Below are positions 54,901 to 57,900 of a DNA stretch of 64,000 nucleotides, piece by piece. Position 1 is the stretch's first letter. Every line of letters starts with the position of its first letter. The notes under the pieces are model-generated. The model did no database searches. It saw only the letters and a list, made by a program, of their open reading frames with translations, and was not told where the DNA came from. Made by a program: the position numbers and the translations under genes. Source of the stretch: Chiloscyllium plagiosum (lineage: Eukaryota); NCBI RefSeq assembly GCF_004010195.1, contig NC_057729.1:58971335-59035334 (forward strand), given 5' to 3'.

Positions 54901-57900
54901 CCTGAGACAGTGATGGGAACAGACTTAATACCGTTCAAGAGAGATTTGGATGAAAGTTGAAGGATAAATATTTTCAGTACTGAGGAAAGAGGAGGAGTAC
55001 TGGGTTGCTCTATCAAGAGTTAGCACAGACGTAACTTGCTGAATGGCTTCCTGTTCTGATTGTTGCTTCTTGCAGGGAAGGATGTCAACACTGGTTCTGA
55101 TGTTCTAACAGCATTCTCTTCCTCTACTGTTGGTTGCAGGTTATTAAGAACAATCTGAATCCGAACTGGAAGCCTTTCTCTGTCTCTTTGCAGTCGCTGT
55201 GTAACGGAGATATGCAGAAGCCCATTAAGGTACAGCTGCTGAGTCCTTTCTGTGGAGCATTCCCAAGTTTCCAGGTGGTTCTGTTTGGGAGCTGGCCCCT
55301 TAAGCAGTGCAGGAATTTAAATCTGTGCCCAGTGACTGGGGAGCTACTGGCAGGAAATGGACACTTCAATGGAGCTGTAACTGGAGGATTTCATTTATTC
55401 AGAGTGTGGTGCTGGGAAAGCACAGCTGGTCATCCGAGGAGCAGGAGAGTTGAAACATCTGGCATAAAGCCTTCATCAGGAATCGGGATTCTCCTGCAAT
55501 CAGGTCGCCTCCAGCCCCACGCTCTTTGACTCTGATCTCCAGCATCTGCAGTCCTCACTTTCTCCTGACCAGTTAATGCATCTATTTAAATGATGTGGTG
55601 TTATGCTGTCCTCTGTTTACCCAGTTCCTTGGATATTTCATGCTCTGAGTCACGGGAGCAAGAGGAAGCAATTCAGCCCCTCAAGCCTGTTCCAGCACAC
55701 AGTGAAAGCATCTGTACTTTAATGCCATCTCACCTTGGTCCAGGTTACACATCAAAGATAGGAGAAAGTGAGGGCTGCAGATGCTGGAGATCAGAGCTGA
55801 AAATGTGTTGCTGGAAAAGCGCAGCAGGTCAGGCAGCATCCAAGGAACAGGAGAATCGACGTTTCGGGCATAAGCCCTGAAGTTGCTTTTCCAGCAACAC
55901 ATTTTCAGCACACATCAAAGATACTCTGGATTGTGGATATTTAAAGCTTTTGAAGTGCAGTTTGTCTGAATGGTTACCTGAGCCTCCGGTATAAAGCCCA
56001 CCAGCCTGCTCCCAGCTCCTCTGTTAGCTCCTGTTGGAGCTGGCTGCACACTAGTTGTTGTTTCTGTGGTTCTGGGCAGTGATTTACAGAGGGGCAGAGC
56101 AATGTAAGAAGTGAGGATTTAAATTCTGAAGGGGCTGGGTAGGATTGGTGCTCAGAGATTGTTTACGCTGGGCAGGAAATCCAAGATCCGGAGCCCAGGC
56201 CTCAGAGTCATTTCAGACTGGGATGAGAAGTCTCTTTGCTGACTGGGTTGTGAATCGTGTACATTCGATACTCCAGTGGACTCTGGATGCTCCGCCATTG
56301 AATATATTTGAAGCTGGGTTAGAGAGAGTTTCGGACTTTCAGAAAATCAGGTGTGGGGAGGGGGCATGAAAGTGGAATTAAAGCCTAGATCAGCCAAGCT
56401 TGTGTTAAATGGTAAAGCGGGCTCAATAGTCTGAATGGTCTACTGCTCCTGTTTCTTCTACTCTGCCTACAATTACCTGGGTACAGCAGCTCTCTCTTCA
56501 GGCAGCTCTGTTGGTTATTGCATTGTCCACTCTCTGATTTTCCACCCCAGTTCTGTCTGCTCTGGGTTACCTGACCTGCTGTTGTGGAACATTCCAACCA
56601 ATCTCAATTCCCCTCGATAGGGAAGGGATTTGGGCATTGGAGGGGAGCAGAAAATCAGCAACTGTTCACCACTTTCACCCCGGGGACTTGTACTAAACAC
56701 TGTTTGTGCTGACGTTGGATGGAGATAGGAAAGTGTTCGGCTGTGATGCTTGCGCAGTTAAATAGCTTTTCACCAGTCTTGGTGCACCGAGTGATTGATG
56801 ACTGAAGGCTGTGGATCTCAGATGCCCCACGTCTCCCCTCCGCTGGGCTGGGGTGTGCATCCTGGTGAGGTGAATCATGAAGCTGCCTTATCCCTTTTTG
56901 AAAGGGACACCATCTTCATCTCTGTGACCCCCATTCCCCCAAGCATATTCACTCTGCACTTACTCTGTGTTTGTTTGATGTCAGGTGGCTATTAACGATA
57001 AGGATGAAAGCACAGGCTCCGATTTGATAGGGGAGTGCACGGTTCCTGCTCAGAAACTGTTGGAAGCAAAGAACCAAGTGGTGAGGCCCTGTCTAATTCT
57101 CCATCTTGGCTGTCCTCTTTTCCCTGTAGGTGACCTGCTCTGACTATGATGGTGATGGCTCTCATGATCTGATAGGCCTTTTTGAAACTAACTTCTCTAA
57201 GCTACAGCAAGTGGAAATGGGGAATCCGGTGAGAACCTTCTTAATTTCTCTCTCAAATCTTTACGTTAGGTGGCATATGCTTTTTTATTTAAACCCTCCC
57301 CCCACCCCCACCCCCCCTTCTTCACAGACCCTGTGTTGTGCTGCGGTGTTTGCTGTTTTTGTGAATTTGGCTTGTCCGTCCTGTAAATTTCTGGTTTTGT
57401 TTGCACCTTCCCACACTCTTCATCCTTTTTCAGGTGCTTTCTTCCTCCTTCACTTCCTCTTTCCCACCCCTCCCCTCTTCCTCTGCGCCTTTTTAGGGGG
57501 AAGTCAGATTAGTCACAGTGGGTACAGCTCCACAGAAAGAAGAACTGCCCACTTGAGCACAGGGTTTTCTGGTGAGGACTTGATCTCAGTCCAAGAGGAG
57601 ACAGTGGAGATAAACAAACAGGAAAACAGAAACTATGCAGATTTGGGAATGATGCTGGTTTCAGGTTTTCAAGGGAACTTTGTAACCAAAATAGAATATT
57701 CCGCCCATTAAAGAAACAGCTGGTGTCAAGCTAGGGCTTTCAAAGCCTGCAGATTGTAGTAGGAAGAGAAGGTAGGAGATCCACAGGTCTGGTCCCTGAC
57801 AAAGAGTTGATAAGAGTCATTCCATGTCACACAGAAACAGACCTTTCAGTCTAACCCGTTCATGCTGACCAGATATCCTAAATTAATCTAGTCCCATTTG

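Follow-up and report, generated by a model that had tools for sequence, protein, structure and literature searches.

Two C2B exons of bamboo shark copine-1 with apparently mutually exclusive use, probably enforced by a 49-nt spacer

Two adjacent exons in the copine-1 gene of the bamboo shark Chiloscyllium plagiosum, here called 7a and 7b, are alternative duplicates encoding one stretch of the C2B domain and are apparently used singly; steric exclusion, through the short donor-to-branch distance predicted in the 49-nt spacer between them, probably enforces this. The gene lies inside the window (the whole 64,000-nt stretch of DNA that was analyzed), and the translations of both exons are copine C2B peptides. 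We describe below the exons and the RNA that joins them, the geometry of the spacer, the protein segment that is exchanged, and the spread of the pair among vertebrates.

Two forms of exon 7

A protein search with the 7a translation plus eight read-through codons returned four proteins from four candidates, all of them carpet-shark copine-1. The top match was RefSeq XP_043566868.1 (P0003), copine-1-like isoform X1 of C. plagiosum, whose exon-7 segment is identical to the 7a of the window; isoform X2 of the same species, XP_043566869.1 (P0155), has 7b in place of 7a, and its segment is identical to the window's 7b. Both single-exon isoforms have therefore already been annotated automatically. 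With XP_043566868.1 as the tblastn query, coding exons were placed from 42794 to 59183 of the window, and counting from the ATG exon, 7a and 7b both take the seventh place.

All features lie on the forward strand. The common upstream exon, coding exon 6 (55140..55229), ends in the donor AAG|GTACAG and was placed by tblastn, by its borders, and by RNA contigs that join it to 7b and to 7a. Exon 7a (56985..57080) is 96 nt long, in phase 0, and encodes residues 212-243 of XP_043566868.1, a C2B strand-loop-strand-helix with the motif D-x-D-x5-D, as supported by E6-7a-E8 contigs and by a structural model; its U2-type donor, GTG|GTGAGG (57081..57086), matches the U1 consensus at 6/9 positions and is used in the contigs that run from 7a to exon 8. 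After the GT..AG spacer intron (57081..57129) comes exon 7b (57130..57228), 99 nt long and also in phase 0, which encodes this C2B segment in the form usual for copines, and then the common downstream exon, coding exon 8 (58492..58578), which was placed by RNA contigs. The borders of 7a and 7b are backed by spliced contigs. The spacer is a length outlier in this gene, as the remaining eight introns between mapped coding exons measure 545-4576 nt. Very high-copy repeats at 55288-56007 in intron 6 and at 57736-58311 in intron 7b swamp read mapping there; they are absent between 56584 and 57735, the block that holds 7a, the spacer, and 7b.

To look for RNA that joins the exons, 8 of 24 listed runs were aligned, none of the 24 being on record as RNA. 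Both X7 and X8, which are presumed to be RNA, yielded two contigs and no more, one per version of exon 7: a 152-nt contig running from the end of exon 6 through 7a to the start of exon 8 (depth, 13.8 in X7 and 17.6 in X8) and a 155-nt contig with 7b in the same place (depth, 43.1 and 38.9). The earlier note had expected junctions from 57080 to 57130 to be absent, and none was found in the contigs of X7 or X8, both of which cover 7a; depth was zero at 57081-57117, with the proviso that these are assembled contigs, which lose rare variants and would miss rare joints, and that both runs belong to the same study. Their 7a and that of the window differ by 3 letters, so X7 and X8 come from a close relative, whose own spacer is unseen. 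In these two samples, abundant double inclusion is excluded; trace levels could still occur.

Among the joints listed, E6>7b and 7b>E8 were also found in the contig runs X1, X5, and X6 and in the raw-read run X19 (5 and 11 reads, respectively, with about 2 in 100 reads used). These four runs leave 7a uncovered, with depth 0 at 56872-57015, and in X1, X5, and X6 the bin after 57015 has the depth expected from the 7b contig alone; they are therefore no test of a 7a-7b join, and the absence of 7a from them was not counted as silence or tissue specificity. X11 and X13, from other organisms, cover neither exon, only the intron pieces 57448-57634 and 57281-57316. Altogether, 7b was present in 6/8 runs and 7a in 2/8, and the 7a>7b joint in 0/2 informative runs. 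In the manner of MXEs, 7a and 7b are adjacent exons of like length, phase, and structural segment, and each occurs alone between the same flanking exons (7a in X7 and X8; 7b in six runs).

Several minor features of the window were recorded along the way. X1 has extra depth after 7b, at 57160-57447 (54.8 versus 42.0 expected, then 27), which is lacking in the other runs and may be intron-containing RNA or low-complexity matches. Farther into the same intron, an exon-like stretch of 75 nt (57497-57571) is preceded by a strong pyrimidine tract and AG and followed by CTG|GTGAGG; it has an in-frame stop in phase 0, one low-depth X11 contig crosses it unspliced, and from its letters it may be a poison exon or a pseudo-exon. 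In a contig of X6, the lysine run of exon 8 (58492-58578) is one codon shorter (3 nt missing at 58525), as it is in protein P0004, and intron 8 carries what looks by eye like a tandem repeat of roughly three copies of ~32 nt (58723-58805). Just upstream of the ATG exon, a 281-codon ORF (41488-42333) is broken by an N run at 42107; by eye, we take it to resemble a retroelement reverse-transcriptase fragment. Reptile copine-1 records carry RBM12 isoform names; no long ATG-initiated RBM12-like ORF is among the window's listed ORFs.

Spacer geometry and the case for exclusion

The geometry described in the earlier note was borne out. The stretch from 57081 to 57129 is 49 nt long with GT..AG ends and reads as it had been quoted; the branch-like CTAAT lies at 57093-57097 with its predicted branch A at 57096 (+16 relative to the donor, -34 relative to the 3' end) and is the sole yTnAy less than 70 nt from the 7b acceptor; and the pyrimidine tract put at ~30 nt covers +17..+47, that is, 31 nt with 26 pyrimidines, and together with the acceptor AG used in E6>7b joints it spans 57097..57129. 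What had been said of the reading frame also holds: 96 and 99 nt are both multiples of three in phase 0, so that a 7a+7b join would stay in frame, and retention of the spacer costs the frame, as the read-through meets a stop at 57141.

CTAAT was rejected as an above-chance signal, since in 20,000 shuffles of the spacer core, yTnAy occurred at +7..+35 in 47% (and yTRAy in 10%). The steric case is independent of this motif, because every candidate adenine is near the donor: of the five adenines in the spacer, two belong to the donor and the acceptor AG, respectively, leaving only +15, +16, and +23 as branch candidates, all of them 23 nt or less from the 7a donor. Going by the usual footprints, a branch at +16 would presumably leave ~4 nt between donor positions +1..+6 and the U2-pairing stretch, and a branch at +23 would leave 11 nt; with ~4 nt between them, the spacer's donor and branch site should be unable to work together. 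Mammalian work has proposed a donor-to-branch distance below ~50 nt as the steric threshold (available text of PMC7969005 and PMC5740500), and the predicted adenines at +15, +16, and +23 fall under it, as does the 49-nt intron itself. The spacer has no AG between +5 and the acceptor, giving an AG-free zone of 46 nt; elsewhere in the gene, this zone measures 15-66 nt before the acceptors. Most branch points lie within the AG-exclusion zone (available text of PMC2991248), which upstream of 7b spans the spacer. Cryptic donors in 7a that would give an intron of at least 70 nt to 7b were set aside: they score 3-4 of 9, except for the exon's first GT. In a separate search for an orthologous spacer, a degenerate 7a-motif pattern scan of metagenome contigs gave 0 matches.

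On this geometry, the 7a donor in the spacer would join 7a to exon 8, removing 7b, and the spacer's branch site and acceptor would join exon 6 to 7b, removing 7a; the two ends of the spacer would thus act in separate splicing reactions and never in one. Because an in-frame join would escape NMD, a physical block would be the simplest safeguard. Which exon is chosen in a given tissue would presumably be left to splicing regulators.

Other means of exclusion were considered. Policing by NMD fails since 96 and 99 nt are both divisible by three and the join keeps the frame. U2/U12 incompatibility fails since the donors GTACAG, GTGAGG, and GTGAGA are all GT-AG and look U2-type; none of the three, we presume, resembles the U12 donor consensus. 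An RNA hairpin over the spacer was rejected, with a z score of +1.48 and 188/200 shuffles folding as well, and a look for docking-site/selector pairing in 56300-57750 turned up nothing convincing, only short inverted repeats (18 nt or less at 72-92%).

It is unlikely, in our estimate, that regulation by RNA-binding proteins or RNA pairing does most of the excluding and that the short spacer is incidental or a backup. Steric spacing explains only 57 of 629 human MXE clusters, these being the ones with a predicted donor-branch distance under 50 bp (available text of PMC5740500); CU- and UG-rich tracts stand in the introns flanking 7a and 7b; the coverage of 7a in 2/6 of the runs showing 7b hints at a regulated choice; and if orthologues stay exclusive with long spacers, regulation alone must suffice. 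However, choice and exclusion are separate questions, and regulation leaves the geometric block in place; moreover, the region holds no RBFOX motif (56700-57600), no stable local fold, and no inverted repeat longer than 18 nt.

Steric exclusion by the spacer must also be set against known short introns. The earlier note had stated that vertebrate introns need roughly 70 nt; this agrees with a vertebrate short-intron peak near 76 nt (available text of PMC9438311) but is too strict as a rule, as human introns of 43 nt (ESRP2), 49 nt (NDOR1), and 56 nt (HNRNPH1) are spliced (available text of PMC4463651). Length is therefore no absolute bar, and the argument for exclusion rests on branch spacing. 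The NDOR1 intron and the copine spacer are alike in being 49 nt long with GT..AG ends; the 43- and 49-nt human introns need a G-rich enhancer and are without a good branch site (available text of PMC4463651), whereas the copine spacer has 10 G of 49, with 0 G-triplets, and no excision of it was seen in X7/X8, which sets it apart from this G-rich ultra-short class.

That the spacer is nevertheless a working ultra-short intron, giving a minor in-frame double transcript whose extra copy is looped out of C2B or whose protein is discarded, is very improbable. The point in its favor is a set of eleven double-inclusion protein models from other vertebrates, namely, catfishes, a characin, carp, and squamates, in which the order is always 7a then 7b and 7/11 are exact joins. 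In one of them, from a catfish, a structural model has the first copy filling the slot and the second extruded (pLDDT <50 at 241-274), but this low pLDDT is confounded, as only 5/30 alignment rows cover the second copy, and we did not count the model as evidence. Against the reading stand the lack of a 7a-7b joint in X7/X8 and of a G-triplet in the spacer; in addition, no double model comes from a cartilaginous fish, and 10/11 (those with an accession seen) are GenBank submissions and not RefSeq, with P0128 being named hypothetical protein. The double models are the main result against exclusion; we infer that they are gene-prediction artefacts, and gene models that join both exons are probably wrong. 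At the level of predicted proteins, they show that the tandem order 7a-7b is conserved. The statement in the earlier note that 7a and 7b cannot be joined thus goes beyond the data in its absolute form: the missing joint in X7/X8 and a spacing far below ~50 nt support it, but an absolute bar would follow only from inference.

Among described MXEs, the earlier note had likened the pair to alpha-tropomyosin exons 2/3 and alpha-actinin. Close donor-branch spacing is indeed shared, but tropomyosin, actinin, and OGDH have distant branch points in longer introns (available text of PMC7969005 and PMC9177970), in contrast to copine-1, whose branch candidate lies at an ordinary -34 in an intron that is short as a whole. 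The copine candidate accordingly lies outside the distant-branch-point subtype (a branch point more than about 40 nt from the acceptor and a long AG-exclusion zone); the usual branch-to-acceptor distance is 20-40 nt (available text of PMC2991248). OGDH exons 4a/4b have donor-to-branch distances of 25-41 nt in human and 46 nt in sunfish (available text of PMC7969005) and resemble 7a/7b as duplicated exons in a calcium-related protein with a spacing below ~50 nt; at 16 nt, the spacing predicted for copine-1 is tighter. The two OGDH exons give calcium-insensitive and calcium-sensitive forms (available text of PMC7969005), whereas both copine exons keep three aspartates.

In architecture, copine-1 resembles the distant-branch-point subtype less than it does those C. 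elegans clusters whose intervening introns are too short. These include egl-15 5B/5A (14 nt), let-2 9/10 (30 nt), and gly-5 9b/9c (34 nt), as well as bet-2 and gly-6 (available text of PMC4165533), and they share with copine-1 homologous exons of 3n length, an intron below the usual minimum, and a join that NMD is unable to police. Copine-1 differs from them in being a vertebrate gene, with 49 nt against a peak near 76 nt (available text of PMC9438311), and in having a recognizable branch motif and pyrimidine tract. With the 57 human MXE clusters it shares the spacing criterion and exon ends embedded in secondary structure (available text of PMC5740500). CPNE1 is absent from the 10 text supplements of PMC5740500, in which a different CPNE2 exon is present, and from the one supplementary file searched of the human catalogue PMC8373072. 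As a tight vertebrate case, with 16 nt from donor to predicted branch and both exons in frame and expressed, the copine-1 pair would for these reasons make a clean minigene for measuring minimum spacing.

The exchanged C2B segment

The swap affects the C2B segment that bears three conserved aspartates, and we regard this as more interesting than the splicing mechanism. We take the D-x-D-x5-D of exon 7 to be C2 calcium-binding loop 3, as predicted, and the fifth position after the first Asp to correspond to a serine ligand in synaptotagmin-1 C2A. For comparison, 30 7a-type and 30 7b-type peptides were picked by hand from 36 and 108, respectively. Both sets share D5, D7, D13, I15, and G16 without exception, and 7a is 32 residues long in 30/30. 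Position 10 is Thr or Ser in all 30 of the 7a peptides and Gly in all 30 of the 7b peptides; position 12 is His in 30/30 of 7b versus 0/30 of 7a; and position 6 is Met, Lys, or Leu in 7a versus Tyr or His in 7b.

The AlphaFold2 model of the 7a isoform has a mean pLDDT of 73, and residues 212-243 are modeled as strand, loop, strand, and helix with pLDDT 82-84. Copines have the architecture C2A-C2B-vWA, and the solved member of the family is Arabidopsis BON1 (6kxk/6kxu), which 7b matches by sequence and which the 7a-isoform model matches over its full length (E 1e-47, TM 0.75). C2B has been described as the main driver of the calcium-dependent membrane association of copines, and deletions or alternative N-termini as the basis of most human copine isoforms (2024 review, available text of PMC10968396); the passages of that review that were seen make no mention of such an exon swap. 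No paper on the 7a/7b pair was found in a search that covered mostly open-access literature. The steric mechanism is known; the ancient C2B loop swap is apparently undescribed, though annotated in databases. The possible lack of 7a in humans would explain the silence of the copine literature searched.

Age and spread of the pair

7a and 7b are identical at 9/32 residues; BLASTP of one against the other gave no alignment, and Pfam found on 7a a weak C2 match (E 0.19). Their homology therefore rests on profiles, with cross-HMM means of 23-24 bits, and on position. A total of 233 copines of at least 200 residues, taken from the matches listed, were sorted by motif: 55 were of 7a type only, 164 of 7b type only (including the paralogues copine-2 and -3), 11 had both, and 3 had neither. 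The proteins of 7a type only come from sharks, rays, gar, herring, carps, catfishes, a characin, coelacanth, and hagfish and, among reptiles, from snakes, lizards, tuatara, and turtles.

Hagfish have two isoforms that differ in the exon-7 segment alone. Against profiles from which hagfish had been left out, the first peptide scored 38.3 bits on 7a versus 19.4 on 7b, and the second scored 35.2 on 7a versus 50.0 on 7b. After masking of the segment, a tree built from 19 chosen proteins groups the hagfish gene with copine-1 and not with copine-2/3 (98/94), a placement that is unsure because of the long branch and the midpoint root. Judged from protein records, the exon pair has persisted in lineages ranging from hagfish to reptiles, and zebrafish also have it, which opens it to experiment. 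No bird, mammal, or amphibian 7a was found among the 11 matches of 14 candidates or the bird clusters listed in a word-limited search; loss of 7a in birds, mammals, and amphibians is thus a lead, not a result.

It is barely credible that 7a is a duplicate in decay or seldom used, its spacer being unconstrained and short by accident: 7a is missing from 4/6 runs covering 7b and has diverged far from it, but its spliced contigs in X7 and X8 reach roughly one-third to one-half of the 7b depth (contig depth being a poor measure), zebrafish NP_955993.2 and AAH50240.1 have a 7a-type exon alone, and its 32-residue length and D-x-D-x5-D-x-I-G are kept in all 30 of the hand-picked 7a-type peptides, whose sources range from hagfish to reptiles; this conservation, as read from these peptides, largely refutes decay.

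We offer a wider reading only tentatively, and taken as a whole we consider it doubtful. The spacer may hard-wire an undescribed switch, older than the split between hagfish and jawed vertebrates, between two copine-1 C2B calcium-binding loops, such that calcium or membrane binding differs between 7a (Thr/Ser at motif position +5, without His and without an aromatic after the first Asp) and 7b (Gly, His, and Tyr/His); the donor-to-branch distance would then be held below 50 nt wherever 7a survives, and mammals, birds, and spiny-rayed fishes would each have lost 7a independently.

In the shark genome, 7a has one match and 7b has six, and no second exon-7 copy was found within 1.5 kb on each side of the five paralogous loci. 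Three copine-3-like copies of exon 7 (L003, L004, and L005) lie on one strand within ~140 kb (G000:C4, 46.32-46.47 Mb), an arrangement that suggests a tandem copine-3 cluster in the shark. A further locus, L007 (G000:C16:49425661-49425744), is a weak, diverged exon-7-like copine match (E 7) without two of the three aspartates and without a clear acceptor; from its letters, it is possibly a pseudogene piece or a chance match.
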